A DNA stretch of 32,000 bases from Acidothermus cellulolyticus 11B (lineage in GTDB: Bacteria; Actinomycetota; Actinomycetes; Acidothermales; Acidothermaceae). Every line of letters starts with the position of its first letter. The first letter of the stretch is position 1. The translations under genes and the position numbers were made by a program. Below, piece by piece: positions 9,085 through 24,624 of this stretch. The notes below the pieces were generated by a model. It was given only the letters and a program-made list of their open reading frames with translations, did no database searches and was not told where the DNA came from. The stretch covers positions 1,200,001-1,232,000 of the forward strand of contig NC_008578.1 in NCBI RefSeq assembly GCF_000015025.1, in the 5' to 3' direction.

Positions 9085-9168
9085 CCGGGTGGATTGTGCC
9101 GGGTGCGACGCGCGCGTACGGCACCTGTGAACGTCGGCCGTGTGCCGTGCTGATGGCGCGCGGGCTCA

Positions 9169-9211
9169 TTGACAAGCTCCAGACGCCTTCGTATCGTTCG
9201 TATACAAACGA
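9169..9211 (+). promoter_or_regulatory. Putative promoter (TTGACA-17-TATCGT) with overlapping operator-like palindrome S1 (TCGTTCGTATACAAACGA, 9194-9211)
   Basis: The -35 TTGACA is at 9169-9174 and the -10 TATCGT at 9192-9197, with a 17-nt spacer. The 18-nt palindrome (8 of 9 arm positions pair) starts inside the -10. It lies 21 nt upstream of the aldehyde dehydrogenase GTG at 9232 and is related to sites at 15514 and 17801. Confidence 0.55.
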
Positions 9212-9231
9212 CATTGAGGGAGGACCCGCGC

Positions 9232-10671
9232 GTGCGTCTGGAATTCCGCAACTTCATTGATGGCCGCGTCGTCGATCCCTCGGGGGATGAGGCTCTGCCC
9301 ATCACGGATCCGCACTCCGGTGAAATCATTGGATATTCCGCCCGCTCGAATGCGGAAGACATCGATCGAGCGTGTAGGGCCGCGGCGGAGGCCTACACCA
9401 CGTGGCGGGATACCACCCCCGCGGAACGATCTCGGGTCTTGCTGCGGATCGCTGATGACATCGAAGAGCGTGTCGAGGAGCTGGCCCGCTTGGAGAGCCG
9501 GAACACTGGTAAGCCGCTTCAGGTGCTTCGCAGCGTCGAGATACCCGCGATGGTCAACCAGATTCGGTTTGTCGCAGGAGCCGTACGAGCGCTCGTCGGA
9601 CCGACGGCCGGGGAGTATCGTCGTGGGTCGACCTCGTATCTGCGCCGTGAGCCGGTCGGTGTCGTGGCACAGATCACCCCGTGGAATTACCCCCTCATCA
9701 TGGCCGCGTGGAAGTTCGCACCCGCGATCGCGGCCGGAAATACCGTCGTGTTGAAGCCGTCCGAAACGACGCCGGTCACGACTCTGGCACTTGCCGAGCT
9801 TGCCTCGGCTCACTTGCCTCCCGGTGTCTTCAACGTCGTCTGCGGTGACGCCGCTACCGGCGCCGCACTCGCGGCACATCCCCTCCCACAGCTTGTTGCC
9901 ATCACCGGTTCCGTGGCCGCAGGCGTGGCCGTCGCCGAAACGGCGAGCCGGGATGTGAAGCGGCTGCACCTCGAACTTGGCGGCAAGGCCCCCGTCCTAG
10001 TGTTCGACGATGTCGACATTCCCAAGGCGGCGGCGGCGATCGCCGAGGCGGGGTTTTTCAACGCGGGTCAGGATTGCACCGCGGCGACGAGGGTTCTGGC
10101 CGCTCGCGACATTGCTGACGACCTGACTGCGGCATTGGCCAAAGAAGCGGCGGACATTCCGACGACCTTTGCGTACGGTGTCGAACATCCGCGCGCCTTG
10201 GTGCCCGCCCTCAACAACGTCCGGCAGTTGGAACGCGTAGCCCGGCATATCGAGACTCTGCCGCCGCATGCAGTCGTGGTTGCAGGCGGCCGCCGACAGG
10301 GCGAACGCGGTTTTCATTTCGCACCCACGGTTGTTGCACACCTTCACGAACATGACGACATCACCTGTACGGAGGTCTTCGGTCCGGTCATCACCGTCGA
10401 GACCTTCGCAACCGAAGAGGAAGCGGTCCGTCGTGCGAATGACGTGCCATACGGACTCGCATCAAGCGTGTGGACGACAGACCTGGCGCGGGCGATGAGA
10501 ATCGCGCGGAGGCTCGATTTCGGTTGCGTCTGGATCAACGAACACGGCTCACTTGTTGCCGAGATGCCTCACGGAGGCTTCAAACACTCCGGTTACGGTA
10601 AAGATCTCTCGATTTACTCGGTCGAGGAGTACACCAGGGTCAAACACATCATGGCTCGATTCGACGAATGA
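9232..10671 (+). CDS. NAD(P)-dependent aldehyde dehydrogenase, gamma-aminobutyraldehyde dehydrogenase (PatD/YdcW)-like
   Basis: The GTG at 9232 follows GAGGGAGGA (9216-9224). Motifs are ELGGKAP, FFNAGQDCTAATR (catalytic Cys), EVFGPV and a C-terminal MPHGGFKHSGYGKDLSIYSVEEYTRVKHIM. The last closely resembles E. coli PatD as I recall it. Confidence 0.85.
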   Translation: MRLEFRNFIDGRVVDPSGDEALPITDPHSGEIIGYSARSNAEDIDRACRAAAEAYTTWRDTTPAERSRVLLRIADDIEERVEELARLESRNTGKPLQVLRSVEIPAMVNQIRFVAGAVRALVGPTAGEYRRGSTSYLRREPVGVVAQITPWNYPLIMAAWKFAPAIAAGNTVVLKPSETTPVTTLALAELASAHLPPGVFNVVCGDAATGAALAAHPLPQLVAITGSVAAGVAVAETASRDVKRLHLELGGKAPVLVFDDVDIPKAAAAIAEAGFFNAGQDCTAATRVLAARDIADDLTAALAKEAADIPTTFAYGVEHPRALVPALNNVRQLERVARHIETLPPHAVVVAGGRRQGERGFHFAPTVVAHLHEHDDITCTEVFGPVITVETFATEEEAVRRANDVPYGLASSVWTTDLARAMRIARRLDFGCVWINEHGSLVAEMPHGGFKHSGYGKDLSIYSVEEYTRVKHIMARFDE

Positions 10672-12008
10672 CGGGAGATACGGTGACGTCTGACCAGACC
10701 ACGGAGTCGGCCGTTCCAGGGCCGCGCAGTGCCGAGCTGCATCGCCGGCGGGAGGCTGCGGTCGCCCGGGGCGTGAGTTCCGTTGCACCCTTCTATGTCG
10801 CCGGCGCACGCGACAGCCGGCTCGTCGATGTGGACGGGAGATCGTATATTGACCTCACGTCCGGGATTGCGGTCGCCAATGTCGGCCATGCGCCAAAGCA
10901 CGTTATCGAGGCGATTCACGCTCAGGCTGAGAGTTTTCTGCACACCTGTTTCATGGTCGCGCCATACGAGCAGTATGTGGCGGTGTGCGAACGACTGAAT
11001 GCCCTAACGCCCGGTGCATTTGCGAAGAAAAGTCTCCTGGTCAATTCAGGGGCTGAAGCGGTGGAGAACGCTGTCAAGATTGCCCGCTATGCCACAAATC
11101 GGCCGGCCGTCGTTGTCTTTGAGAATGCCTATCACGGGCGCACCAACTTGACGATGGCGATGACCGCGAAAGCGCATCCGTACAAAGACGGATTCGGCCC
11201 CTTCGCGGGTGAAATCTATCGAGCGCCGATGTCGTATCCTTTTCGCGATCCGGCAGCCATGACCGGCGAGGAGGCCGCTGCGCGCGCCATCGACGTTATC
11301 GAGCGCTACGTCGGAGCGGCACGTGTTGCATGCGTCGTCATAGAACCGATCCAGGGTGAAGGAGGATTTGTCGTTCCCGCACCCGGATTCCTACCCACAT
11401 TGCGGCAGTGGTGCAGTGAAAACGATGTCCTCTTCGTCGCTGACGAGATTCAAACCGGGTTCGGACGGACCGGGCACATGTTCGCGTGCGAGCACGAGTC
11501 CGTCGTCCCCGACATTATGATTCTCGGTAAGGCTCTGGCGGGAGGTCTGCCGCTTGCCGCGGTGACTGGCCGCGCGGATCTCGTTGATCGGGTGCATCCG
11601 GGCGGGTTGGGCGGTACGTACGGTGGAAATCCGGTCGCGTGTGCGGCGGCGCTCGCCACCCTGCACCTTCTCGAGGCAATGAATGCGCCCGCCCGCGCCC
11701 GCGGAATTGAGAAGATCATGCGGCCGCGGCTGGATGCTCTCGCAGCTCGCTATCCGTTCATTGGCGACGTTCGCGGTCGGGGTGCCATGCTTGCCCTCGA
11801 GGTGGTGCGGCCGGGCACAAAGGATCCCGATGCGGCGCGGACAGCCGATATCGTGCGTTCATCGTATGACGAAGGTCTCGCAGTCCTAAGCTGCGGTATG
11901 TACAGCAATGTACTGCGGTTTCTGCCGCCGCTGAGTATCGACGACGCGCTGCTCGTGGAAGCGATGAACCGGCTCGACCACGTCTTCGAGCGGGTAGCCG
12001 CCGCTTGA
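10668..12008 (+). CDS. Class-III PLP aminotransferase, 4-aminobutyrate aminotransferase (GabT/PuuE)-like
   Basis: The ATG overlaps the upstream stop (ATGA at 10668-10671). Motifs are SGAEAVENAVKIAR, DEIQTGFGRTG and ILGKALAGGLP (PLP lysine). Confidence 0.85.
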   Translation: MTGDTVTSDQTTESAVPGPRSAELHRRREAAVARGVSSVAPFYVAGARDSRLVDVDGRSYIDLTSGIAVANVGHAPKHVIEAIHAQAESFLHTCFMVAPYEQYVAVCERLNALTPGAFAKKSLLVNSGAEAVENAVKIARYATNRPAVVVFENAYHGRTNLTMAMTAKAHPYKDGFGPFAGEIYRAPMSYPFRDPAAMTGEEAAARAIDVIERYVGAARVACVVIEPIQGEGGFVVPAPGFLPTLRQWCSENDVLFVADEIQTGFGRTGHMFACEHESVVPDIMILGKALAGGLPLAAVTGRADLVDRVHPGGLGGTYGGNPVACAAALATLHLLEAMNAPARARGIEKIMRPRLDALAARYPFIGDVRGRGAMLALEVVRPGTKDPDAARTADIVRSSYDEGLAVLSCGMYSNVLRFLPPLSIDDALLVEAMNRLDHVFERVAAA

Positions 12009-12021
12009 GTATCGTGGTGGC

Positions 12022-12738
12022 ATGCCGACGGTCCTCTTCATCGAGCACGATCACGTTTCTCCGCCAGGCCTCCTGGGTGACGCGTTCGAGAAATGCGGCT
12101 GGGACGTCGCAGAGTTTCTCGTCGTACCGCCTGAATCATTTGACAGCCCGGCGATAGACGTCCGTTTACCGGATCCGCTGCACTATGACGCGGTCGTGCT
12201 GCTCGGTGCTCCCTGGTCGGTGTACGACGAAGCGCTGCAGGAACGGTGGGTCGGGGAGGAAATCGCGTTGGCCCGACAAGCCGACGCCGAGGGCATGCCC
12301 GTCATCGGTGTCTGTTTTGGTGGTCAGCTTCTCGCCGCCACCCATGGTGGACGGGTCGAACGCGCGGCATGCGCTGAAGTCGGCTGGACGAGGATCCATT
12401 CCCGCGTCCCGGAGTTCATTCCGGAGGGTCCGTGGCTGCAATGGCATCAGGACCGATGGCACACACCAGCGGGTGCGGCGGAGCTCGCCCATAGCCTTGT
12501 TGCGCCGCAGGCCTTCATGCTTCGGGCGAACCTCGCTGTTCAATTTCATCCCGAAGCGGATGAAACCGAGGTGGCTCTCTGGCTGGAGGCCGGAGGCGCC
12601 GATTACGTGCGCCAGCACAACCTCGACCCCGACGAACTTCTTCGGATCACTCGTCGTGAGCAGGCGCGCGCCGCTCAGTGCACCGAGAAATTGCTCAAAG
12701 GGTACTTGGAGCGTGTTCACGACCTGAACCGCCGGTGA
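12022..12738 (+). CDS. Stand-alone class-I glutamine amidotransferase-like protein (candidate gamma-glutamyl-amide hydrolase)
   Basis: The nucleophile elbow is GVCFGGQLL and the His/Glu region is AVQFHPEAD. It lies 13 nt after the aminotransferase on the same strand. Confidence 0.75.
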   Translation: MPTVLFIEHDHVSPPGLLGDAFEKCGWDVAEFLVVPPESFDSPAIDVRLPDPLHYDAVVLLGAPWSVYDEALQERWVGEEIALARQADAEGMPVIGVCFGGQLLAATHGGRVERAACAEVGWTRIHSRVPEFIPEGPWLQWHQDRWHTPAGAAELAHSLVAPQAFMLRANLAVQFHPEADETEVALWLEAGGADYVRQHNLDPDELLRITRREQARAAQCTEKLLKGYLERVHDLNRR

Positions 12739-12864
12739 ACAACGAACCGTCTGTGCACGACGGGATGACCGCGAGCCGGCTCAGGCTGGAGATAGCCCGG
12801 GACGCGACGGCAACCGGTGAGAGGAGGTGCGTGCCGTCGGCCCCGGGTTGCCTCCGGCCTTCTG

Positions 12865-14109: not shown

Positions 14110-14153
14110 GGGTCCTCCGGAAGTTGTGCGGTCAACGTAGGGGCAATGAGCGA

Positions 14154-15503
14154 TTAGAGGTGGTAGAGATATTCACCGACTTCCCAGTCGGTCACGTAAT
14201 GTGCGAAGCGTTCCAGTTCGTTCCGCTTATAGGTCACGAACGCCGAGATCAGGGGCTTCCCTAGGATCTCCGTGAGCTCGGTGTCCGCCTCCAGGGCGTC
14301 AAGGGCGGCTTCGAGATTCCGGGGCAGAAGTCGGGAGCGGGACGCATCGTAACCGTATCCCTCGGTCGGCGGCGGCGGCGTGAGTTTCTCTTCGATGCCG
14401 AGGTACGCGCCGGCCACGACACTTGCGATGGCGAGATAGGGGTTGGCCGTCGCGTCTCCGAGACGGACTTCGATGCGTGTGGCGTCTCCGCGTTCGGGGG
14501 GAATCCGTACCATCGTGCTCCGATTGTCCAGCCCCCAGTCAATCAACCAGGATGCGAGCGTGTCGGGACCGAACCGTTTGTAGGAATTGATCGTGGGGTT
14601 ATTGAACGCGGCGAGAGCCGGCGCATGCGCGAGGATGCCTGCAACGGCGTGTTCCGCCAGCGACGACAGGCCGGTGGGAGCCGCCTCATCAGCAAACAGT
14701 GACCGATCGCTCGGATCCACGATGGAGAAGTGGAGGTGGAATCCCGAGCCGCCCTCCTCGTTGAACGGCTTCGCCATGAAGGTGGCGTGTTTGCCGGCGC
14801 GGCGGGCTAACTCCTTGACGGCCGTGCGGAAGCGGAAAGCGCGGTCCGCGGCGTCCAATGCGTGCGAGTGGCCAATATTGATCTCAAATTGCCCGCTGAA
14901 GAACTCGTGATTGCCCGCGGTGGCGCGAATACCGTAGCGGGCGAGCTGCCTGAGAAATTCGAGGAGCAGGTTTTCTGGGTCGCCCTTGCGCCCGGCCACG
15001 TAGACGTTGCCCGGTGCCTCGCCGTACCGCCGCCAACCGGACGACGACGAGCCCTCCAGGAGGTAGAACTCCATTTCCGGACCGACGACCGGAACGAGAT
15101 TCTCGGCTTCGCATCGACCCACCACAGAGCGCAGCACTGAGCGCGGGCTCTCCGCGCATGGGCGGCCGTCGGGCTCGACGATGTCAGCCAGGACGTGGGC
15201 GACGCCGTCCTCCCAGGGAATCTTGCGAACCGTCGACAGATCCGGCTTGGCAAGGACGTCAGGCAATCCGGCGTCGAGACCGCCGGCGACCGGTACGACG
15301 TCCCCCCTCGGGCTGGTGTGGAAGACCCCGCGGCAGAACGCAATGCCGCCTTCACCCAGGTGGTGCGCAAGCGTTTCGACGACAAGATCCCGGCCGCGTT
15401 CCGTTCCGATGAGGTCCGCGTATCCGATCCGCAGAACGTCGATTCCCTCGCTGCGCAGCTGCTCCGTCAGGCGCTCGACGTTACGTTGATCGTCGGACTG
15501 CAT
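14154..15503 (-). CDS. Glutamine synthetase-like gamma-glutamyl-amine ligase (GlnA3/PuuA/IpuC/TdnQ-type family)
   Basis: The protein is 449 aa. The GS catalytic-domain signatures are KPFNEEGGSGFHLHFS, NSYKRF and RIEVRLGDATANPYLA. The ATG at 15503 has AGGAGG 6 nt upstream. The context is accessory, not the housekeeping glnA locus. Confidence 0.85.
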   Translation of the reverse strand: MQSDDQRNVERLTEQLRSEGIDVLRIGYADLIGTERGRDLVVETLAHHLGEGGIAFCRGVFHTSPRGDVVPVAGGLDAGLPDVLAKPDLSTVRKIPWEDGVAHVLADIVEPDGRPCAESPRSVLRSVVGRCEAENLVPVVGPEMEFYLLEGSSSSGWRRYGEAPGNVYVAGRKGDPENLLLEFLRQLARYGIRATAGNHEFFSGQFEINIGHSHALDAADRAFRFRTAVKELARRAGKHATFMAKPFNEEGGSGFHLHFSIVDPSDRSLFADEAAPTGLSSLAEHAVAGILAHAPALAAFNNPTINSYKRFGPDTLASWLIDWGLDNRSTMVRIPPERGDATRIEVRLGDATANPYLAIASVVAGAYLGIEEKLTPPPPTEGYGYDASRSRLLPRNLEAALDALEADTELTEILGKPLISAFVTYKRNELERFAHYVTDWEVGEYLYHL

Positions 15504-15513
15504 TCATGACCTC

Positions 15514-15537
15514 CTATCGTTTGGTACCAAACGATAG
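15514..15537. promoter_or_regulatory. Perfect 24-bp palindrome S2 (CTATCGTTTGGTACCAAACGATAG), operator-like, in the divergent GS-like / ADC-MarR intergenic region
   Basis: CTATCGTTTGGT and ACCAAACGATAG are exact reverse complements. The palindrome abuts the RBS of the GS-like gene. On the minus strand its TATCGT can serve as a -10 with TTGCTC 17 nt upstream. It shares the core GTTTGG-NN-CCAAAC with the site at 17808-17821. Confidence 0.65.
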
Positions 15538-15675
15538 AACAGACGCGGGCGGTGAGCAATAGACTGGGCGGGTCCGACACGCGGGGGAGGGCGACGGTCT
15601 CGTAACCAGATTCCGAATCGCCGTCGTACTCTTTCCGCTCGGATGACCGCTGACGACCATAGGGTAGGTGATGCG

Positions 15676-16503
15676 ATGCGGGGATTCTTTTACCCACGGA
15701 CGCCGACCGGGCAGGCGTCGATTATTCCTGCGCCGCCTTGGTATTACTCCGGGGACATGTTGACCGTTGAGTACCGGACCGATCCCGCTTTGGTGGCGGC
15801 CCTGCTGCCGCCTCCGCTGGAACCCGCTCCGGAGGATCCGGGCGCGGTCGCGATTATCTGGGCTGACTGGCAATCGTGCTCCGAAGGCGGCGCTGAGCTG
15901 CTTGATCCGGTCCGGGCACAGTACAAGGAAACGCTCGTCGTCGTCCGCTGCACGTATCGCGGTGAGATCTTTTCCCGCTGCGTCTTTATCTGGGTCGACA
16001 AGGACTTTGCCCTCGTCCGGGGGCTGCATCAGGGCTATCCGAAGAAGCTGGGCTCGATCTGGATGACACGGCCCCATCCCTACGGACGGGCCGCCCCCCG
16101 ACTCGAAGCGGGTGCCACGATAGCGGCCACGCTCGCTGCGGCGGACCGTCGGCTGGCACAAGCAGTCGTGACATTGCGCGATGTTGTCGAGGCACCCGGC
16201 TTCGTGAACAGCCATCCGATGGCACACCACCGCGTTGTCCCCGGGATAGCCAAAGGCGCGCCGGACGCCCTGAACGAGCTCATCCGATCCGCTGCCGCCG
16301 CGGTCACGGGCGGGCCCGTCTGGCGAGGTGACGCGTCCTTGGAGCTCTTTGAGTCGCCGACGGAGGAGCTTGCCGCACTCCGTGTCGATGAGATCATAGG
16401 TGGCTACTATCGGCAGGTGGGAGTCGTATGGGACGGCGGTGAGGTCCTCGCGCCGCACGGTTCGGGTGGCGGTGTACAGCCTCCCGAGGCGCGCGAATCA
16501 TAG
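15676..16503 (+). CDS. Acetoacetate decarboxylase (ADC)-family protein
   Basis: MRGFFYPRTPTG...YRTDPALVAALLPPPLEP aligns with the N-terminus of clostridial Adc as I recall it. The Schiff-base lysine context YPKKLG is conserved (HQGYPKKLGS). I preferred the ATG at 15676 (AGGGTAGG 7 nt upstream); the ATG at 15643 is an alternative. Confidence 0.8.
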   Translation: MRGFFYPRTPTGQASIIPAPPWYYSGDMLTVEYRTDPALVAALLPPPLEPAPEDPGAVAIIWADWQSCSEGGAELLDPVRAQYKETLVVVRCTYRGEIFSRCVFIWVDKDFALVRGLHQGYPKKLGSIWMTRPHPYGRAAPRLEAGATIAATLAAADRRLAQAVVTLRDVVEAPGFVNSHPMAHHRVVPGIAKGAPDALNELIRSAAAAVTGGPVWRGDASLELFESPTEELAALRVDEIIGGYYRQVGVVWDGGEVLAPHGSGGGVQPPEARES

Positions 16504-16551
16504 TCATTTCACCTCGGACCTGGTCGGCGACGGACAAGGAGGATGCGGCGC

Positions 16552-17067
16552 ATGACGGGTTATCACACCTTGGCGGAAACCGAGAAGGCCATGGCCACTC
16601 ACCTCAAAGGATTGCCGATCGACATGGCCGCCGCTGAAGCCGTCTCAAACCTTTACCGGGCGGCTAATATCGCCCGCAACCATCTCACGCAGACGGTCCT
16701 GAAAGATGTCGATCTCACCTGGACCGCATTTGTCGTCCTCTGGGTGACCTGGATGTGGGACGGCATTGAGAGCCGGCACGCTGCGGAGGAAGCCGCCATC
16801 TCCAAGGCGACCTTGACCGGCGTGGTCCAGACGTTGGAGCGTCGGGGTCTCCTTGCTCGATTCGGCGATTCCGATGATCGACGTCTGGTGCGTCTCCGGC
16901 TTACCAACGAAGGCCGGAGCCTGATGCAGAAGCTCTATCCGGTTTTCAACGCGGAGGAACAATTCATCGTATCGACATTGAGTCCGCGCGTGCGCTCCAC
17001 CATGACCCGAGGGCTGCGTGCTATCGTCGCCCATCTTGAGTCGCAAAGCGACACGCGGCGTCCATAA
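16552..17067 (+). CDS. MarR-family transcriptional regulator
   Basis: The winged-HTH region is AAEEAAISKATLTGVVQTLERRGLLARFGDSDDRRLVRLRLTNEG. The ATG at 16552 sits 9 nt after AAGGAGG (16536-16542); the ORF-track ATG at 16543 abuts the RBS. It lies 48 nt downstream of the ADC-family gene. Confidence 0.85.
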   Translation: MTGYHTLAETEKAMATHLKGLPIDMAAAEAVSNLYRAANIARNHLTQTVLKDVDLTWTAFVVLWVTWMWDGIESRHAAEEAAISKATLTGVVQTLERRGLLARFGDSDDRRLVRLRLTNEGRSLMQKLYPVFNAEEQFIVSTLSPRVRSTMTRGLRAIVAHLESQSDTRRP

Positions 17068-17752
17068 ACGCTTTGAAAATTGCCATCTGTGCTTGATCGC
17101 TCGGCGTCCCGTCTTCCGGATGCCATTGGATGCCGAGGCACCAACCCGCTTCACCGGACAGTTCGAACGCTTCCGGCGTGCCGTCCACGGCCCAGGCCAC
17201 TGGGCGAAGTCCGCGGCCCGGTCGAGCGACACACTGGTGATGAAAGCAGGACACCCACATGCTCGGCCGAGTGACGATCTGACCAAGGCGGCTGGCCGGC
17301 TCGACCGTCACGTCATGTTTACGATGACGGTGCGCCTCTTCCGCCATATCAACGACAAGGGAGCCTCCTAGGGCGACGGTCAAAACGTGAAGGCCGCGGC
17401 AGATTCCCAAGAGTGGAACCCCTCGGGCGACGCAGTGGCGTGCGCAGGCGAGATCCACCGCGTCTTGTTCGACGTCGACGTCGTACAGCGTCGGATGCTC
17501 CGCCTCGCCGTACCACTGGGGGTGCAGATCGCCGCCGCCGGGGAGCAGGACGGCGTCCGCCTCCCGGAGCCGATCCGCCAGCTCCGTTTCATCGATCGTG
17601 CCGTTGGGAGCCCAGGGCAAGAAGGACAACGGCTCGCCACCCGCCAGGTAGACGGCTTCGGCAAGGGCGCGCGCGGTGGCCAGTGCGGCAAAGCGAAGCG
17701 CAGAGGCGCGCGCCGAGAAGCGGGCCGGTATGAAGACCCGTGGACGTTGCAT
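17021..17752 (-). CDS. Gamma-glutamyl-gamma-aminobutyrate hydrolase (PuuD)-like peptidase C26 / class-I amidotransferase
   Basis: The nucleophile is GICRGLH, with CFHHQ and GIQWHPE. The C-terminal AIFKAFMDAAC resembles the E. coli PuuD tail. The 3' end overlaps the MarR 3' end by 47 nt. Confidence 0.85.
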   Translation of the reverse strand: MQRPRVFIPARFSARASALRFAALATARALAEAVYLAGGEPLSFLPWAPNGTIDETELADRLREADAVLLPGGGDLHPQWYGEAEHPTLYDVDVEQDAVDLACARHCVARGVPLLGICRGLHVLTVALGGSLVVDMAEEAHRHRKHDVTVEPASRLGQIVTRPSMWVSCFHHQCVARPGRGLRPVAWAVDGTPEAFELSGEAGWCLGIQWHPEDGTPSDQAQMAIFKAFMDAACRFATQDGRR

Positions 17753-17781
17753 GACAACGCTCCAATGCGTCTGTGCAGTTC

Positions 17782-17827
17782 TTGACCCGTCGACGACAGC
17801 CTATTATGTTTGGACCCAAACGAATAG
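17782..17827 (+). promoter_or_regulatory. Putative promoter (TTGACC-17-TATGTT) with overlapping operator-like quasi-palindrome S3 (CTATTATGTTTGGACCCAAACGAATAG, 17801-17827)
   Basis: The -35 is at 17782-17787 and the -10 at 17805-17810, with a 17-nt spacer. The core GTTTGG-AC-CCAAAC (17808-17821) matches S2 in 14 of 18 positions over 17806-17823. It sits between the divergent PuuD-like (start 17752) and HpaE-like (start 17860) genes. Confidence 0.55.
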
Positions 17828-17859
17828 ACGCACGAGTAGACGACGGCGGGAGGGTGCGG

Positions 17860-19341
17860 ATGCCGCGTACGACGTCCGTCAGCGGAATTGAGGTTTCCGT
17901 TGACCACTGGGTGGGCGGCGAACGCCTCGCGTCGGATGCGACGTTCCCTGACATTTCACCGCTTGATCAGCAGGTTCTCGCCAATGTCGCCCGCGGCGGA
18001 CCGCGGGAAGTGAGCGCCGCGGTCGACGCCGCTTCGGCGGCGTTTCCGCAATGGGCGGCGACACCGCGCACCGAGCGGGCCGCCCTCCTGCACGCCGTAG
18101 CGGAAGGCATCGAGAAGCGTGTCGACGATCTCGCACTCGTCGAAACGTTGGACAACGGGGGGTTGCTCCGGTCCCATCGTCGGAGTGTGATTCCCCGCGC
18201 CGCGTATAACTTTCATTTCTTTGCGGATTTTCTCTTGCAGCTCGGTCATGAGGATTTCGAGACACGAGGACATAGAAACCACATTTCGTGGCAACCGGCA
18301 GGAGTCACGGCGGTCATCACGCCGTGGAATGCACCGTTGATGCTCGCCACCTGGCGGGTCGCACCCGCCCTAGCCGCCGGCAATACCGTCGTGCTCAAGC
18401 CCCCGGAGTGGGCGCCGTTGACGGCATCACTCCTCGCCGACATTACCGCTGAAGCCGGGCTGCCGCCAGGCGTCTTTAACGTCGTGCAGGGTATTGGGGA
18501 GGAGGCCGGTGCCGCACTGGTGCGCGATCCCCGGGTACGCCGTATCGCCTTCACCGGCTCGGTTGCGACCGCGCGCGCCATCGGTCACGCGGCAGCGGAG
18601 AACGTCATCCCCGTCTCCTTCGAGCTGGGAGGCAAGAATCCGTTCATTGTCTTTCCCGACGCCGACCTGGACCTCGCTGTACGACACGCGGTGGATCAGT
18701 ACGACAACGCCGGCCAGGTCTGTCTCGCCGGCACGCGATTGTACGTCGCCGACGCCGTCTACGACGAATTCCTTGAGCGGTTTCTCCAGGCGGCTGCGGC
18801 GTGGCGGGTAGGGGACCCGCGCAGCGAAGACGTCGACATGGGCCCGCAGATTCATCCCGACCATCTTGCGCGCATTGACGGATACGTCCGCCGCGCGAAA
18901 GCCGCCGGGGCGACGGTCCTACTCGGCGGCGGCCCGCATCCGGAGCTGGGCGGTCTGTACTACCAACCCACCTTATTGACGAATGTTGCCGATGACAGTG
19001 AGATCAACCGCGAAGAAGTCTTCGGTCCTGTCATTGTCCTGCATCGATTTACGGACGAAGACGAAGTCATCCGGCGTGCGAACGACAATATCTATGGGCT
19101 CGCGGCGATGGTCTTTACCGGCGACCGGTCACGGGCGGAGCGCGTCGCGGACCGGCTGGTCGCCGGCACCGTCTGGGTGAACTGCTTCTACGTCCGCGAC
19201 TTGCGGGCGCCGTTCGGCGGCGCGCGGTTGTCCGGTATCGGCCGGGAAGGCGGCACCTGGTCGTTCGACTTCTACGCGGAGGTCAAGAACACGGTGACCG
19301 CCCCGAGCGGCTGGTTGATAAAGGAGGCGAATGGTGGGTGA
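17860..19341 (+). CDS. Ring-fission semialdehyde dehydrogenase (5-carboxymethyl-2-hydroxymuconate / 2-hydroxy- or 2-aminomuconate semialdehyde dehydrogenase, HpaE-like)
   Basis: The ATG at 17860 follows GGGAGGG. The sequence is collinear with E. coli HpaE as I recall it: HWVGGE, IPRAAYNFHFFADF, FELGGKNP, NAGQVCLAGTR and VRDLRAPFGGARLSGIGREGG. Confidence 0.85.
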   Translation: MPRTTSVSGIEVSVDHWVGGERLASDATFPDISPLDQQVLANVARGGPREVSAAVDAASAAFPQWAATPRTERAALLHAVAEGIEKRVDDLALVETLDNGGLLRSHRRSVIPRAAYNFHFFADFLLQLGHEDFETRGHRNHISWQPAGVTAVITPWNAPLMLATWRVAPALAAGNTVVLKPPEWAPLTASLLADITAEAGLPPGVFNVVQGIGEEAGAALVRDPRVRRIAFTGSVATARAIGHAAAENVIPVSFELGGKNPFIVFPDADLDLAVRHAVDQYDNAGQVCLAGTRLYVADAVYDEFLERFLQAAAAWRVGDPRSEDVDMGPQIHPDHLARIDGYVRRAKAAGATVLLGGGPHPELGGLYYQPTLLTNVADDSEINREEVFGPVIVLHRFTDEDEVIRRANDNIYGLAAMVFTGDRSRAERVADRLVAGTVWVNCFYVRDLRAPFGGARLSGIGREGGTWSFDFYAEVKNTVTAPSGWLIKEANGG

Positions 19342-20245
19342 AGTCGTCGGTGCGGGACTGCTGTCCCATGTGCCAACGATCATGTTGCCGGAGTCCACGC
19401 GGCGTGAGTTGTACGAAGGCAAAGACACCACGCTCGTCGACGGACTGCGTCGGCTTCGTACTGAAGTCTTTGAAACGCTCGACTATGACACGGTCGTCGT
19501 CCTTGACTCGCACTGGGCGACCACCGTCGAGTTCGTTGTGACGGCACACCCGCTCCGGGCCGGCCTCTTTACCTCAGAAGAGCTGCCGCGCGGCATGCGT
19601 CGCATCCCTTACGACTTCATGGGCGATCCTGATCTCGCACATGCCATCGCCGCAGCCGCGGAGAGACACGGCACCTGGATCACGGCAATCGACGATCCAT
19701 ATTTGCCAATCTTTTACGCCACGGTCAATCTCTGGAAGTATCTGGGGGAGGGACTCGATCGGAGGTGGATCTCCCTCAGTGTCTGCCAAACCGCAGATAT
19801 GGAAGACTTTCTGCGCGCCGGTCGAGCCCTTGGCGAGGCAATCATCAACTCTGATCGCCGTGTCATACTCATCGCATCCGGCGCGCTGAGCCATACCTTC
19901 TGGCCGCTCCGCGAATTGCGGAAGCATGAAGCCGCGGGTGTTGAACACATCTTCAGCAGGGAAGCCGCCGATGCCGACAACGAGCGGCTTGCCTGGTTCC
20001 AGAAGGGTGATCACGCTCAGGTGCTCCGGACGATGGGGGAGTTCTACCGTTTCAAGCCGGAGGCGAAATTTGGTCACTACCTTCTGATGATGGGCGCACT
20101 CGGCGAGGAGGCCTGCACGGCACCCGGGCGGTTATTCAGTGCATATGAAAATTCGATCGGCACGGGACAAGTCCACGTGTGGTTCGATCGTCCAGAAGGA
20201 GGCTTTCCCGCTCCGCGCGCGACAGACACTCGTGGCGATGACTGA
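19331..20245 (+). CDS. Class III (LigB-type) extradiol ring-cleavage dioxygenase, HpaD/HpcB-like
   Basis: Motifs are LSHVPTIM, VVLDSHW, IASGALSHTFW and IGTGQVHVWF, as in homoprotocatechuate 2,3-dioxygenase (HpcB) and the related AmnB/LigB enzymes. The start (ATG 19331 or GTG 19334) overlaps the upstream stop, and AAGGAGG is at 19321-19327. Confidence 0.85.
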   Translation: MVGEVVGAGLLSHVPTIMLPESTRRELYEGKDTTLVDGLRRLRTEVFETLDYDTVVVLDSHWATTVEFVVTAHPLRAGLFTSEELPRGMRRIPYDFMGDPDLAHAIAAAAERHGTWITAIDDPYLPIFYATVNLWKYLGEGLDRRWISLSVCQTADMEDFLRAGRALGEAIINSDRRVILIASGALSHTFWPLRELRKHEAAGVEHIFSREAADADNERLAWFQKGDHAQVLRTMGEFYRFKPEAKFGHYLLMMGALGEEACTAPGRLFSAYENSIGTGQVHVWFDRPEGGFPAPRATDTRGDD

Positions 20246-21110
20246 GGTCGAGCGCGTTACCGAGTACCGCCGGATACTCCTCGACGGCGCGGAAACCCGC
20301 GTCGAGCGGCACGGTGACCTATTGATCGCACCAGACGGCCGACGTGTTCCGGTCGAGAAAGCGGTTCATCTCCCTCCCGTTCAGCCAACAAAGATTATCG
20401 CGGTACACCTCAATTACCGCAGCCGCGTCGAGGAGTTTCACGCGCGGCTTCCGCCGGCTCCCACCTACTTTCACAAGCCGACGACGGCGCTCAACGCTCA
20501 CGGAGGCGCCGTCGTGCGGCCGCAACGATGCCGTTGGCTCAACTTCGAAGGTGAATTCGCTGTGGTGATCGGTAGGCCATGCCGCAACATCCGGCCGGAT
20601 GACGCGATGGACTACGTCGCCGGATTCACCATAGCGAACGATTTCGGGCTGCACGACTTCCGGGACACGGATGCAGGGTCCATGCTTCGCGTCAAGGGCT
20701 CCGATACGCTCTGCCCTCTGGGCCCGGGACTCGTCGTCGGCTGGCAACCGCAGGGCAAGCGCCTGCGTACCTATGTCAACGATCGCGTCGCTCAGGATGC
20801 GTCAACAGACGAGATGGAGTGGAGCCCCGCGTATCTCATCGCCGACATCGCCCGCACCATCACCCTGCTGCCCGGTGACGTGATTCTCACCGGTACACCC
20901 GCGGGCTCGCGTCCGGTCGAACCAGGTGACGTTGTCACGGTGGAGGTCGAAGGCCTCGGCCGCCTGGTCAACTACGTTGTCGAAGGACCAATACCGGTGC
21001 GTGATGACGTCGGCGCGCAGCCGTCGTCATCAGAAGAAGTGGTCTCCACCGCCCTCGGCGGCGATTGGGAGTTCCGAGGCATTCGGCCTCCCCGCCGTGC
21101 GGTGGAGTGA
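20238..21110 (+). CDS. Fumarylacetoacetate hydrolase (FAH)-family enzyme (HpaG/HpcE-type decarboxylase/isomerase or hydratase, single domain)
   Basis: The ATG at 20238 (or GTG at 20232) overlaps the dioxygenase stop (ATGACTGA). FAH-fold motifs are KIIAVHLNYRSR, NFEGEFAVVIG and GDVILTGTPAG. Confidence 0.8.
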   Translation: MTEVERVTEYRRILLDGAETRVERHGDLLIAPDGRRVPVEKAVHLPPVQPTKIIAVHLNYRSRVEEFHARLPPAPTYFHKPTTALNAHGGAVVRPQRCRWLNFEGEFAVVIGRPCRNIRPDDAMDYVAGFTIANDFGLHDFRDTDAGSMLRVKGSDTLCPLGPGLVVGWQPQGKRLRTYVNDRVAQDASTDEMEWSPAYLIADIARTITLLPGDVILTGTPAGSRPVEPGDVVTVEVEGLGRLVNYVVEGPIPVRDDVGAQPSSSEEVVSTALGGDWEFRGIRPPRRAVE

Positions 21111-21149
21111 CCCGGTGTATCAACCACTGCCACAGGAAAACGGGAGTCA

Positions 21150-21371
21150 ATGATCATGCGGATTGTCGTTGATCTGACGAAATGCCAGGATCACGGACAG
21201 TGTGTCTTCTCATGCCCGGAAGTGTTCTCGCTGGACGAGAACGGGAAGCTGTCTTTTCGAAAGTACGCGCAAGAGCTCTACCGATCGGAGCTCATTTCAG
21301 AGGAGCTGCGCGACAAGGTCGAAGAGGCGGCCGACGTCTGCCCCACCCAGGCAATTCTTATTGAGGAGTAA
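21150..21371 (+). CDS. Small ferredoxin, [3Fe-4S]-type P450 redox partner
   Basis: The protein is 73 aa. The cluster motif is C-QDH-GQ-C ... C-P (CxxHxxC...CP), as in actinobacterial P450-associated ferredoxins. The start is ATG 21150 or 21156. Confidence 0.85.
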   Translation: MIMRIVVDLTKCQDHGQCVFSCPEVFSLDENGKLSFRKYAQELYRSELISEELRDKVEEAADVCPTQAILIEE

Positions 21372-21374
21372 AAG

Positions 21375-22619
21375 GTGCAACGCGTCGTCGTGGTCGGCGC
21401 GTCGGTAGCGGGACTTCGAGCGGTTGAATCGCTGCGCAGGAACGGATTCGCCGGCGAAATCCTCGTTATCGGCGGTGAGCGCTGGCCGCCGTACAACCGC
21501 CCGCCGCTCTCCAAGACCGTTCTCACGGCTACCGAATTGCCGGGCTTCGATGAGATCGCGCTTCCTCTTTCGCCACGGATCGGTGACGTCCAATGGCGGT
21601 TGGGTGTCCGTGCGGCGGCGTTGGACGTGGACGCACGCGTCGTCGTCCTCGAGGACGGCCAAACGGTCGAGTGGGACGGTCTCGTTATCGCGACCGGACT
21701 GCGACCGGTGCGGTTGGCTGTCCCCGGGCCGACGGTGAGGCGGTACGTGCTTCGCAATTTTGATGACGCGCGGGCACTCCGAGACGTGCTGCAGCCCGGT
21801 GCCCGGCTTGTCGTGATCGGTGCGGGGTTCATTGGTTGCGAGGTCGCCTCCGCCGCGAGGGAACGCGGGGTCCACGTGGTCGTTGTCGGACGCTCGGAAT
21901 ACCCTCTTCCCGGGCTGGGCGACATTCTGGGAAGCGAACTGCGGAGACTTCACGAGACACATGGCGTCCGCTTCCTCGGAGCACGAGCGGTCGTTGCTTT
22001 CGAGGGAACCGACCATGTACGCGGTGTAGTCCTCGACGACGGCACCGAACTGGCCGCCGACATCGTCGTTGAAGCAATCGGCGGCGCCCCGGAGACGGAT
22101 TGGCTCGTAACCACCAAGCTCGACATCCACAACGGCGTGCGGTGTGACGGAATGTTACGAGCACTCGACATTTCGGGACAGCCCATACCCAACGTCGTGG
22201 CATGCGGTGATGTCGCACGAGTGCCCCTGCTGCGCGGGGCGGGAATTGAAGGCCGAGTGGAGCACTGGTCAATGGCCATTGAGACGGGACGGTACGCCGG
22301 CCGCACCCTCGCTGCATCCTTGTCCGGTGCGGCGGCAGGTGCGCCGTCTGTGCCGATGGTGCCGACGTTCTGGTCAGACCAATATGGCGTTCGGCTCTCC
22401 GGCGTGGGTCTGCCTGAGATGCATGACGGCGAGATCCGGGTACGGCATGACAGCGCGGCCGGCGAAGTCGCGATCTCGTACTTCCGGGCCGGACGGTTGA
22501 TCGGCATCGCTGCACTCGGCTGTGCCGCACGACTCCCGGAGTTTTACGACGCGGTCCGGCGCTCCTGGCAGGATGAGGGCCACCCGGTCTCGACCGTGAC
22601 TCGGTCGTCGCCGCGCTAA
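21375..22619 (+). CDS. FAD-dependent ferredoxin-NAD(P)+ reductase (pyridine nucleotide-disulfide oxidoreductase family)
   Basis: The GTG at 21375 lies 3 nt after the ferredoxin stop, with GAGGAG upstream. The FAD fold is VVVVGASVAGLRA, the NAD fold is LVVIGAGFIGCEVA, and ACGDVA is also present. Confidence 0.88.
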   Translation: MQRVVVVGASVAGLRAVESLRRNGFAGEILVIGGERWPPYNRPPLSKTVLTATELPGFDEIALPLSPRIGDVQWRLGVRAAALDVDARVVVLEDGQTVEWDGLVIATGLRPVRLAVPGPTVRRYVLRNFDDARALRDVLQPGARLVVIGAGFIGCEVASAARERGVHVVVVGRSEYPLPGLGDILGSELRRLHETHGVRFLGARAVVAFEGTDHVRGVVLDDGTELAADIVVEAIGGAPETDWLVTTKLDIHNGVRCDGMLRALDISGQPIPNVVACGDVARVPLLRGAGIEGRVEHWSMAIETGRYAGRTLAASLSGAAAGAPSVPMVPTFWSDQYGVRLSGVGLPEMHDGEIRVRHDSAAGEVAISYFRAGRLIGIAALGCAARLPEFYDAVRRSWQDEGHPVSTVTRSSPR

Positions 22620-22829
22620 GCCGGCGGCCTTCGCGCGGTGTGTTTCTGTTGGTCAACAACAATGTGACGATCTGTTCAGGGGTCTTGTCAGAAGATAGTT
22701 CGGGCCCTAATATCTCACCAGACGCGTGGCTCATCATTACGAGACCGAGTAGTTGACGGTGCCCGTCGGTACCGCCGCGGCTGCCGTCGTTCGAACGCGT
22801 CTTCCTATCGTGTCGATCGAGGAGGCCCT

Positions 22830-24380
22830 ATGGTAAGCGCTTCCGGAGAGCGCGGCGCAATGCTGGCGGCGGTTGAGGCAAGAGCCCCGTCGCGACACCT
22901 GTGGCGAGATCGGATTGCGGTCATCGGCATTGTTTTTTATGTGGTTGCGGCATCCGCGCCGCTGGTTGGCATGTCCGGTGCGGTTCCCGTGGCCATCGGC
23001 CTGGGGAATGGTTCCGGGACGCCCGGCGCTTACCTCGCGGTCGGTATCGCGCTCCTCATCTTCAGCGTGGGTTACGCCGCCATGAGCAGCAAAGTCACCA
23101 ATGCCGGGGCATTCTTCGCCTATGTAGGCCGTGGACTCGGCGTACGGGCCGGAATTTCTTCCGCCTTTGTGTCTATCTTCGCGTACGTCACGATCCAACT
23201 CGCGATTTATGGCTTCATGGGCGGGCTGGTCGCGCAGGAAGCCAAGCAATATCTCGGCATCTCCCTTCCCTGGTGGGGATGGGTCTTTATCGCCTGGGGC
23301 CTTGTGCTTCTCCTTTCCCTCTTCAGCGTGGATGTCGGCGCTAAAGTTCTTGGCGGCTTTATGATTCTTGAGCTGAGCTCGCTCCTCATCATGGCTTTCG
23401 CTGTCATCTTCCGCGGCGGCGGCCCGCAAGGACTCAGTGTGTCGGCGTCGTTCGCGCCAAGCCATGTCTTCGTCGGCGGCCTCGCCGGATCGGCTGGAAT
23501 CGCGTTGGCGTTCGCGTTCGCCTCCTATATTGGCTTTGAGGCGACGGCGATTTACGGCGAGGAGTCACGGGATCCGAAGCGTACGGTTCCGGTGGCTACC
23601 TACGCGGCTGTGGGAACGATTGCCCTGCTCTTCGCCGTTACGTCGTGGGGAATTGTGAGCGGCTTAGGGCAAGGCCGCGTCGTCGACGAGACGCTGAAGA
23701 TTTCTACGGTTGGTGATACACCGCTGGCGGATCCCGCACAAGTCATCTTCCACGTCGCCACGCAGTACGTTGGATCGTGGCTCGCGGATCTCATGCGCAT
23801 TCTCGTGATCTCCAGCCTTTTCGCCGGCCTGCTCGCGTTCCAGAACGCCAATGCGCGGTATTTCTACGCGCTGGGGCGTGCCGGCGTCCTGCCGAAGGCT
23901 CTGAGTCACGTCTCACGGCGCGGATCCCCGATGTACGGAACGCTGACGATGTCCGGGCTCACTGCCCTCGTGGTGCTCATCTTCATGGCGAAGGGCTGGG
24001 ACCCGGTGCTCAACCTCTTCTATTGGTCCAGTGCCATTGCCGTCATGGCGATCGTCATAGTGGAAATTCTGGTCTCCGTTGCGGTGATTGCCTTCTTCCG
24101 GCGTGATCATTCCGATACCCGGCTCTGGAACACCGTGGTCGCGCCGATCCTGGCCATTGCCGCCCTCGGTATCGGTCTCTACCTCCTCATGGCCCGGTTC
24201 GGGCTTCTCGCCGGTACCGCAGCAGCCGGGGTCGATCCCACGAAGACGGCGTGGGCGCTGTCACCAACGGGATGGGTGCTCATTGCGCTGCCGTTCGTCA
24301 TGCTCATCGTGGGTCTTGTCGTAGCGCTTGCCCGACGGCGGAGCATCGACAGCCAGGTCGTTGCCGATCTGGTGAGCTGA
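22830..24380 (+). CDS. APC-superfamily amino acid/amine permease
   Basis: The protein is 516 aa with about 12 hydrophobic segments and Gly/Ala-rich TM helices typical of APC transporters. The ATG follows GAGGAGG (22819-22825). Confidence 0.8.
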
Positions 24381-24431
24381 CGGTACGCGTGGTGCGCGCA
24401 GGTTAGCCTCGCGCTGTCCGAGTACTGACCG

Positions 24432-24487
24432 GGGACGTTCGCGCGTTTCCCCGGACCGGAGTCCTCCCCGAACCGCGCGAACGTCCC
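24432..24487 (+). terminator. GC-rich hairpin (14-bp perfect stem, 28-nt structured loop) downstream of the permease; possible factor-independent terminator without a U-tract
   Basis: GGGACGTTCGCGCG (24432-24445) pairs exactly with CGCGCGAACGTCCC (24474-24487). It begins about 50 nt after the permease stop. No T-run follows, so the assignment is tentative. Confidence 0.35.
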
Positions 24488-24624
24488 GGGTTCTCGCCTG
24501 CGCCGGACGCCGGCCCGACAGAGCGCCTGCGGTCCGTAGGCGGCTCAAGACACGGGGCGATCCTGATCCGCGGCGCACCCCAGTCATCCCCAGGAGTGCG
24601 CCGCGGCGTGCGTACGGTGGAACC

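Follow-up and report, generated by a model that had tools for sequence, protein, structure and literature searches.

The window analysed in this study is a stretch of 32,000 nucleotides (nt) from the genome of Acidothermus cellulolyticus 11B (contig NC_008578.1, positions 1,200,001 to 1,232,000), and its subject is a trio of overlapping genes resembling the core of a meta-cleavage pathway, together with the gene island in which they lie. The trio is located on the + strand and encodes a HpaE-like NAD(P)-dependent aldehyde dehydrogenase (ALDH; 17860..19341; Pfam Aldedh, 534 bits), a LigB-type (class III) extradiol dioxygenase (19331..20245; PF02900) and a single-domain HpcE/HpaG-like enzyme of the FAH family (20238..21110; PF01557, 190.6 bits). 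The ALDH gene stops at TGA 19339–19341 and an ATG of the LigB gene lies at 19331, which gives an 11-nt overlap, and the LigB gene stops at TGA 20243–20245 with the ATG of the FAH gene at 20238, which gives one of 8 nt. The FAH gene ends at 21110 and is followed, after a gap of 39 nt, by the ATG of a ferredoxin gene (21150) placed behind a GGGAG; this gene stops at 21371 and a reductase gene begins 3 nt on with a GTG at 21375. The layout confirms an earlier interpretation made from the letters of the window alone (the sequence-only reading), which had reported start-to-stop overlaps of 11 and 8 nt with the ferredoxin and reductase next in line. A GTG at 19334 is the more likely start of LigB, as it lies 6 nt behind a GGAGG and pairs with the start methionine of at least 90% of 12 aligned LigB sequences, and the true ALDH/LigB overlap would then be 8 nt. 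Among 49 related loci the ALDH and LigB genes overlap in 35, most commonly by 8 nt (17 loci). The ATG of the ALDH gene at 17860 is backed by a ribosome-binding site (RBS, GGGAGGG) and by an operator and a promoter-like site upstream. Overlaps of this size are nothing unusual for operons in high-GC DNA. The trio had also been described as fused to the redox partners of a cytochrome P450; this is to be read as co-transcription and not as fusion at the protein level, and the arrangement is found in just 16 of 70 related loci.

The dioxygenase belongs to the class III enzymes, with a PF02900 score of 79.9 bits against a cut-off of 26.3. Its sole NCBIfam match was TIGR02298 (HpaD_Fe), at 135.3 bits well under the equivalog cut-off of 316. 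Among PDB entries it matched 3,4-dihydroxyphenylacetate (DHPA) 2,3-dioxygenase (8iq8, E 6.6e-23, 84.6 bits, approximately 25% identity) and AmnB (7txy, E 1.7e-13, 53.7 bits). Residues H13, H61, E244 and H188 are invariant in 12 members of its clade and pair with the H/H/E/H of 8iq8, an alignment by which the 2-His-1-carboxylate iron site and the catalytic histidine are both predicted to be present. An AlphaFold model built from the 12-sequence alignment (predicted local distance difference test, pLDDT, 73; predicted template modelling score, pTM, 0.79) was compared with the PDB using Foldseek, and at E<1e-3 it matched LigB-family structures exclusively, with template modelling (TM) scores of up to 0.73. 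A protein search gave 4,824 homologues at E<=0.001, the best 120 of them at 73–99% identity. The protein belongs to a tight clade (70–80% identity) which a genome scan placed in at least 586 species, the genera including Nocardioides, Actinomadura, Amycolatopsis, Streptomyces, Mycobacterium, Rhodococcus rhodnii and Dermacoccus.

For the first enzyme of the trio, HpaE (TIGR02299) was the best of 43 NCBIfam ALDH models with 529.4 bits, below its equivalog cut-off of 638.35, followed by 2-hydroxymuconic semialdehyde dehydrogenase (484 bits). It is predicted to oxidise the ring-fission semialdehyde. The FAH-family enzyme consists of one domain of 290 amino acids (aa) instead of the two tandem domains of HpaG/HpcE, and it scored 207.4 bits against the model of the HpaG C-terminal domain (cut-off 276.4) and 112.3 bits against that of the N-terminal domain (cut-off 228.65). 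Its match to Escherichia coli HpcE (1gtt) in the PDB had an E value of 4.4e-64, and the NCBIfam search detected no match to the XylI/XylJ-type models, namely 4-oxalocrotonate decarboxylase and 2-oxopentenoate hydratase. It is predicted to act as a decarboxylase, possibly also as an isomerase, on the oxidised ring-fission product. The best NCBIfam matches of all three proteins therefore support the description of the trio in the sequence-only reading as a HpaE/HpaD/HpaG-like meta-cleavage core.

That reading had noted the absence of HpaBC, HpaF, HpaH and HpaI from the window, and searches of the complete genome (a single contig of 2.44 Mb, 99.4% complete) extended the absence to all of it. Family searches there did not find HpaB (HpaB_N), HpaF/CHM isomerase, HpaH, HpcH/HpaI or a 4-OT-type tautomerase, so that the dioxygenase gene lacks the company of hpaBC, hpaF, hpaH and hpaI anywhere in the genome, and the case of a complete hpa cluster elsewhere, in which the earlier proposal would have failed, is excluded. 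Only one gene of the LigB family (PF02900) is present in the genome, and the second, non-catalytic LigB-family subunit that characterises AmnAB is thus absent. There are two FAH-family genes. The other one (G000:C1:781058-781648; L082:1318-2121) has a citramalate-synthase-like gene on one side and gltX on the other, the conserved setting of an actinobacterial housekeeping copy with no relation to aromatic catabolism. As the genome has no second LigB, CHM isomerase, HpaI, HpaB, HpaH-type FAH protein or tautomerase, the genes of the island itself must complete the pathway. This island, of 15 kb (9085–24624), looks horizontally acquired and inserted between the rpsA side and uvrB. Its G+C content is 0.61–0.65, slightly less than in the flanking DNA (up to 0.70), and the dioxygenase was found in none of 40 sampled relatives of the genome, 17 of them from the same family.

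Such a candidate for completing the pathway is the gene at 15676..16503 (+ strand), which encodes an MppR/Sbi00515-like member of the acetoacetate decarboxylase (ADC) superfamily (PF06314, 213 bits). Comparison with the PDB gave MppR (4jm3, E 6.3e-50), Sbi00515 (4zbo, 8.1e-46) and Swit_4259 (5upb, 3.6e-31), with a far weaker match to a true acetoacetate decarboxylase (3bgt, E 6.2e-06), which places the protein among the MppR-like members; its score against the MppR model was 204.7 bits (cut-off 380). In the 286-aa frame, K134 pairs with the lysines that form the Schiff base in MppR (K156) and Sbi00515 (K122). The gene is single-copy in the genome and does not lie in an enduracididine cluster. 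Enzymes of this family, Sbi00515 among them, are pyruvate aldolase-dehydratases, and the reaction run in reverse would be the hydration and retro-aldol cleavage of a 2-oxo-3-enoate, combining the tasks of HpaH and HpaI. This reverse chemistry suits the step needed here, and the ADC-like protein is predicted to be a hydratase-aldolase replacing both enzymes. MppR condenses pyruvate with an aldehyde, and in S. solfataricus MppR-like proteins beside catechol 2,3-dioxygenase were induced 77–82-fold by phenol and have been proposed as the aldolase of a meta-pathway (PMC7820114). Of 69 relatives, 60 have the ADC-like gene within the locus, and in 28 it lies directly upstream of the ALDH gene in the same orientation. 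The meta-cleavage module had been called truncated; this does not hold, as the ADC-like gene could supply hydration and aldol cleavage.

Apart from LigB, the island encodes a single oxygenase, a cytochrome P450 (12865..14109, − strand; Pfam p450), the predicted ring hydroxylase of the tagged amine discussed below. Both its haem cysteine motif (FGKGSPHFCLG) and its I-helix motif (AGNETT) are intact. It is the only enzyme of the island able to create a catechol, and the earlier identification of it as the only candidate hydroxylase holds within the island, with no HpaB in the genome. The ferredoxin (21150..21371, + strand; 73 aa, single-cluster; Fer4_15 57.7 bits, Fer4_13 48.7 bits) carries a CxxHxxC...CP cluster motif, typical of small ferredoxins partnering actinobacterial P450s, and is presumed to be the electron carrier to the P450. 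The FAD-dependent ferredoxin-NAD(P)+ reductase (21375..22619, + strand; Pyr_redox_2 185 bits, Reductase_C 37 bits) had its best NCBIfam matches among HcaD/AndAa-type ferredoxin reductases. In the PDB, the P450 was nearest to a reconstructed CYP125 ancestor (8vxi/8vxg, 410–413 bits), with extant CYP124/125 proteins at 238–268 bits. As an observation of its own, this P450 of an amine cluster may belong, unrecognised, to the sterol-oxidising CYP125 clade or be a sister of it that evolves slowly.

The remaining genes of the island point to the attachment and removal of a gamma-glutamyl group. A glutamine-synthetase-like (GS-like) ligase (14154..15503, − strand; Gln-synt_C 327 bits), a predicted gamma-glutamyl-amine synthetase, scored under all of the specific NCBIfam cut-offs, with 286/429 bits for GlnA, 285/470 for type III and 274/650 for gamma-glutamylputrescine synthetase. 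A Peptidase C26 protein (17021..17752, − strand; PF07722, 150.7 bits), encoded divergently from the trio operon, resembles PuuD-like gamma-glutamyl-amide hydrolases, and its best NCBIfam match was gamma-glutamyl-4-aminobutyrate (gamma-glutamyl-GABA) hydrolase (PuuD) at 70.7 bits against a cut-off of 266. A class-I glutamine amidotransferase-like protein (12022..12738, + strand; GATase 48.6 bits, Peptidase_C26 28.1 bits) is possibly a second hydrolase of this kind. Two further + strand genes encode an ALDH of the aminobutyraldehyde dehydrogenase family (9232..10671; NF010000 648.8 bits, above the cut-off of 615), with an RBS and operator upstream, and the 4-aminobutyrate-2-oxoglutarate transaminase GabT (10668..12008; NF004714 678 bits, cut-off 639; TIGR00700 562 bits, cut-off 507). 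An amino acid/amine permease of the APC family (22830..24380, + strand; AA_permease 83 bits, AA_permease_2 78.5 bits) lies beyond the reductase gene. The island does not reach the marks of a Puu-type system, defined by the PuuA, PuuC and PuuD equivalogs plus PuuB: the respective scores were 274/650, approximately 519/850 (for ALDHs of the relatives) and 70.7/266, and no PuuB-type oxidase was found among the annotated genes of the island.

Control of the island is suggested by a MarR-family regulator (16543..17067, + strand; Pfam MarR, 38.6 bits) and by three kindred palindromes with the core TCGTTTGG..CCAAACGA. One lies at 9192–9213 before the ALDH–GabT operon, one at 15515–15536 (a perfect TATCGTTTGGTACCAAACGATA) between the ligase and ADC-like genes, and one at 17803–17827 between the hydrolase gene and the ring-fission operon. 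The last of these, with a GTTTGG-ACC-CAAAC core, overlaps the promoter-like site before the trio operon (TTGACC-17-TATGTT, 17782–17810). The three are likely to be MarR operators, a putative assignment, and a clear fourth palindrome before the permease gene was not confirmed. The aminobutyraldehyde-dehydrogenase-type ALDH and GabT genes form an operon whose upstream operator motif is shared with the ring-fission operon. It should also be noted that the MarR and C26 hydrolase genes converge with their 3' ends overlapping by 47 nt (17021–17067), which leaves no space for a terminator.

To examine the conservation of the island, 80 related loci were fetched and the island proteins mapped onto them, with the 55 loci that had full 10-kb flanks being used for neighbour counts. 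The HpaE-like ALDH (orthologues of 55–74% identity) and the FAH enzyme were each present in 54 of the 55, the ADC-family gene in 50, MarR in 49, the GS-like ligase in 43, and the P450 and the Peptidase-C26 (PuuD-like) hydrolase in 42 each. The second amidotransferase-like gene followed in 28, the ferredoxin in 16, orthologues of the permease (56–63% identity) in 13, GabT in 6 and an aminobutyraldehyde dehydrogenase of the type in the window in 1. In 70 loci the gene directly after FAH was recorded: 18 loci had the C26 hydrolase there, 8–9 a second ALDH with the hydrolase behind it, and 16 the ferredoxin/reductase pair. PuuC was the best model for this second ALDH in both of the cases scanned (approximately 519 bits against a cut-off of 850). 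Since FAH is followed by the C26 hydrolase, or by a PuuC-like ALDH and the hydrolase, the genes for ring fission and de-glutamylation are co-transcribed. The two gene sets stay together in different orders of Actinomycetota, and single operons contain genes of both, for example ADC-ALDH-LigB-FAH-(ALDH)-C26. A Mor/Pip/Ipu-like alkylamine cluster as the sole explanation of the island was dropped, as ring-fission genes are interleaved with alkylamine-type genes in the relatives.

Accessory genes of the relatives include those for VanA-like Rieske oxygenases (18 loci), VanB-like reductases (9) and F420-type luciferase-like oxidoreductases (10). The VanA-like proteins are of a type acting on aromatic substituents and hint at an aromatic substrate. 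In one lineage of uncultured Actinomycetota (L006, L012, L014, L016, L017 and L033; for example L017:3194-7640), a four-gene arrangement was found around the P450, comprising an F420-type luciferase-like oxidoreductase, a VanB-like reductase (FNR plus 2Fe-2S) and a VanA-like Rieske oxygenase. It sits between the permease gene and ADC-ALDH-LigB-FAH, without the small ferredoxin or ferredoxin reductase, which suggests a wider substrate range, perhaps taking in methoxylated or N-methylated compounds, and a different redox partner. A group-II pyridoxal-phosphate (PLP)-dependent decarboxylase lies inside the cluster in five loci (L044:10249-11691 and four others), including metagenome-assembled genomes of Nanopelagicales and Bifidobacteriaceae. 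All NCBIfam models scored far below cut-off for it, and its nearest PDB entry was 4obu, titled 'pyridoxal-dependent decarboxylase domain protein', which is presumably a gut-bacterial tryptophan decarboxylase, although the title does not say so. The decarboxylase could supply the amine by acting on an aromatic amino acid, and the link to arylethylamines is a hint, not proof. Three recurrent groups of open reading frames (ORFs) without a Pfam match (representatives L064:5355-6518, L016:6326-7420 and L049:11767-12834) could have arisen as antisense artefacts in high-GC DNA; that of L016 sits where the plus-strand VanA-like gene lies in the sister locus L017.

It is proposed, with slightly more belief than doubt, that the trio is the ring-fission core of a self-contained, MarR-controlled catabolic island for an aromatic amine, most likely a 4-hydroxyphenyl-alkylamine such as tyramine, which would be gamma-glutamylated during its breakdown. 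A glutamate-tagged amine is preferred because the conserved partners of the trio are the gamma-glutamyl ligase and hydrolases, and not a transaminase or amine oxidase. We infer a route of eight steps. The permease would import the amine (step 1) and the GS-like ligase would form the N-gamma-glutamyl amide (step 2). The P450, receiving electrons from the ferredoxin and reductase whose genes come after that of the FAH enzyme, would hydroxylate the ring to give a catechol, that is gamma-glutamyl-dopamine (step 3), which LigB would cleave in extradiol fashion in the manner of homoprotocatechuate 2,3-dioxygenase (step 4). The semialdehyde would be oxidised by the HpaE-like ALDH (step 5), and the product decarboxylated, and probably isomerised, by the HpcE-like FAH enzyme (step 6). 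The MppR-like enzyme would then hydrate the 2-oxo-enoate and cleave it by retro-aldol reaction to pyruvate and gamma-glutamyl-4-aminobutanal (step 7). Finally, an ALDH of the aminobutyraldehyde/PuuC type and the PuuD-like hydrolase would release GABA and glutamate, and GabT would convert GABA to succinate semialdehyde (step 8).

The carbon balance behind step 7 follows the homoprotocatechuate pathway, in which oxidation of the aldehyde carbon precedes its loss as CO2 and pyruvate carries away three carbons, so that the side chain plus two ring carbons remain. The same bookkeeping applied to a 2-aminoethyl side chain therefore yields N-gamma-glutamyl-4-aminobutanal. This compound is a PuuC-type substrate, and its oxidation product, gamma-glutamyl-GABA, is a PuuD-type substrate. 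The glutamyl tag would keep the amine of the side chain from attacking the reactive ring-fission product. Extradiol products of free DOPA and dopamine cyclise through their amine, as in betalamic acid and in the precursors of lincomycin and the pyrrolobenzodiazepines, and an amide cannot do so. In its full form, a protected-amine meta-cleavage route which turns N-gamma-glutamyl tyramine or dopamine into pyruvate, CO2 and GABA, and which would give the Sbi00515-type 'orphan' enzymes their first physiological role, is put forward tentatively and at somewhat short of an even chance. Nothing relevant to the catabolism of gamma-glutamyl-tyramine or -dopamine, or to glutamylation joined with extradiol ring cleavage, was found in the literature searched, most subscription journals being outside its coverage, and this negative suggests only weakly that ring cleavage on a gamma-glutamylated aromatic amine is novel.

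Several points weigh against this proposal. The LigB, ALDH, FAH, GS-like and C26 proteins all scored under the equivalog cut-offs of their namesakes, and homology does not give the substrate. DHPA and aminophenol dioxygenases rank level by fold (TM 0.64–0.73 for both), so the substrates are not separated in this way, and a reading of the substrate pocket from the LigB model was dropped as pLDDT fell below 50 in loops 62–92, 120–129 and 189–196. The nearest characterised kin of the P450 (CYP124/125/142/153) hydroxylate terminal methyl groups and not aromatic rings. GabT (6/55) and the aminobutyraldehyde dehydrogenase (1/55) are rare among the relatives, and the length of the side chain (0, 1 or 2 carbons) is only weakly indicated; the conserved core would suit a zero-carbon (4-aminophenol) or one-carbon (hydroxybenzylamine) side chain equally. 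For the enol-keto step no isomerase was identified, so that it would fall to the FAH enzyme or be spontaneous. The stage at which the glutamyl group would be removed was placed from gene order alone.

The island can be described as a HpaD-HpaE-HpaG-like core joined to glutamyl tagging in the style of Puu, Atd and Ipu, with HpaH and HpaI replaced by an MppR-type enzyme. Like the hpa/hpc homoprotocatechuate pathway of E. coli, it has a MarR-type regulator and members of the LigB-type extradiol dioxygenase, semialdehyde dehydrogenase and FAH-type decarboxylase/isomerase families, arranged in the same order of reactions. It differs in its FAH enzyme of one domain rather than two, in the lack of HpaBC/F/H/I from the genome with the MppR-like protein taking the place of hydratase and aldolase, and in the ties of the trio to genes for glutamylation and de-glutamylation and to P450 redox partners. 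In the Puu pathway of E. coli (PuuA–E), a GS-like ligase likewise tags the amine with glutamate, and oxidation of a gamma-glutamyl-aminoaldehyde is followed by the release of GABA by a C26 hydrolase and by a GabT-type transaminase step. The island, however, is without the PuuB oxidase, its predicted aldehyde would come from an opened aromatic ring, and its Puu-like scores lie below the cut-offs. The aniline and 1-naphthylamine systems (AtdA1-A5/TdnQTA1A2B/NpaA1) and the isopropylamine (Ipu) system resemble it in GS-like activation, in an oxygenase with its own redox partners acting on the glutamylated amide, and in an amidotransferase-like hydrolase. In the arylamine systems, by contrast, ring cleavage comes only after a Rieske dioxygenase has removed the tagged nitrogen, and no ring is involved in Ipu, whereas the island appears to cleave the tagged molecule. 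With the AmnAB/amn pathway it has in common the LigB subgroup (TM 0.64–0.69) and a semialdehyde dehydrogenase following the dioxygenase, but it is without the AmnA subunit, an XylI/XylJ-type enzyme and a deaminase (none was seen), and its similarity to AmnB is weaker than that to the DHPA dioxygenase.

These likenesses give rise to other explanations. The one that survives best, and which is nonetheless considered unlikely, is that an arylamine of the aniline or 4-aminophenol type is glutamylated and hydroxylated by the P450, and the resulting aminophenol or N-glutamyl-aminocatechol cleaved by LigB as by AmnB, to give pyruvate and acetaldehyde or a glycine derivative. A ligase, an amidotransferase-like hydrolase, an oxygenase and a reductase make up the architecture of the known aniline and 1-naphthylamine pathways, aminophenol dioxygenases are as near in fold as the DHPA dioxygenase, and the conserved core leaves the side-chain length unfixed. 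Yet the genome holds no AmnA-like second LigB gene, no deaminase was seen in the island, and the FAH enzyme is HpcE-like and not of the XylI/XylJ type, matching neither 4-oxalocrotonate decarboxylase nor 2-oxopentenoate hydratase. The sequence of LigB is also nearer to the DHPA dioxygenase (84.6 versus 53.7 bits), and GabT, the aminobutyraldehyde dehydrogenase, the PuuC-like ALDH and the PLP decarboxylases would be left unexplained. The aminophenol substrate offered as one option in the sequence-only reading is accordingly disfavoured.

A further explanation would see two unrelated modules under one regulator, an Ipu/Pip/Puu-like alkylamine route (for example from pyrrolidine or putrescine to GABA) and a separate module for catechol meta-cleavage. 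P450-dependent oxidation of gamma-glutamyl alkylamides is known from the Ipu pathway, the kin of the P450 are alkyl hydroxylases, and the alkylamine genes alone would already yield GABA. That the two gene sets remain linked in different orders of Actinomycetota, with their genes mixed within single operons, speaks against it, as does the lack in the genome of any catechol-making enzyme, apart from the P450, for the second module, and it is thought quite unlikely.

It is very unlikely that tyramine or dopamine is instead deaminated by the class-III aminotransferase and oxidised by an ALDH to (di)hydroxyphenylacetate, taken by the P450 to homoprotocatechuate and degraded by the homoprotocatechuate pathway to succinate semialdehyde, with the ligase and hydrolases serving some other amine. 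HpaE, HpaD_Fe and HpaG are the best NCBIfam matches of the trio, the nearest solved relative of LigB is the DHPA 2,3-dioxygenase, and MarR, the aminotransferase and the ALDH belong to the same regulon here. Against this, all three trio proteins lie below the homoprotocatechuate equivalog cut-offs, the aminotransferase passes the GabT cut-offs and the ALDH that of aminobutyraldehyde dehydrogenase, both are absent from most relatives, and the conserved GS-like ligase and C26 hydrolase, often co-transcribed with the trio, would be left unexplained. The sequence-only reading had offered such an entry through aminotransferase and ALDH, and the neighbour counts tell against it, with GabT in 6/55 and aminobutyraldehyde dehydrogenase in 1/55 as opposed to the GS-like ligase in 43/55 and the gamma-glutamyl hydrolase in 42/55. 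Of its wider proposal, a tyramine- or dopamine-type substrate linked to GABA chemistry remains the best fit, while the aminotransferase and ALDH entry to free dihydroxyphenylacetate is not the conserved route. A biosynthetic role, in which extradiol cleavage of a DOPA- or dopamine-type unit leads to a natural-product heterocycle as for lincomycin or the pyrrolobenzodiazepines, has a parallel in extradiol enzymes, including LigB-type ones, that act so on DOPA (betalains) and in MppR being a biosynthetic enzyme, but is extremely improbable given the absence of non-ribosomal peptide synthetase, polyketide synthase and tailoring genes, the presence of permease, repressor and GABA-utilisation genes, and the retention of the cluster in at least 586 species, including the present 2.4-Mb genome.

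If the proposed breakdown of a gamma-glutamylated aromatic amine is correct, at least 586 actinobacterial species from soil, water and hosts would dispose of biogenic aromatic amines in this manner. It would join glutamyl tagging and extradiol ring cleavage, two textbook strategies not known to occur together, and would show how cells escape the spontaneous cyclisation of free catecholamine cleavage products. It would also provide a catabolic function for the MppR-like enzymes of the ADC family and correct the automatic annotation '3,4-dihydroxyphenylacetate 2,3-dioxygenase' on many of the 4,824 database homologues. It would then be possible to test whether microbes convert tyramine or dopamine directly to GABA.

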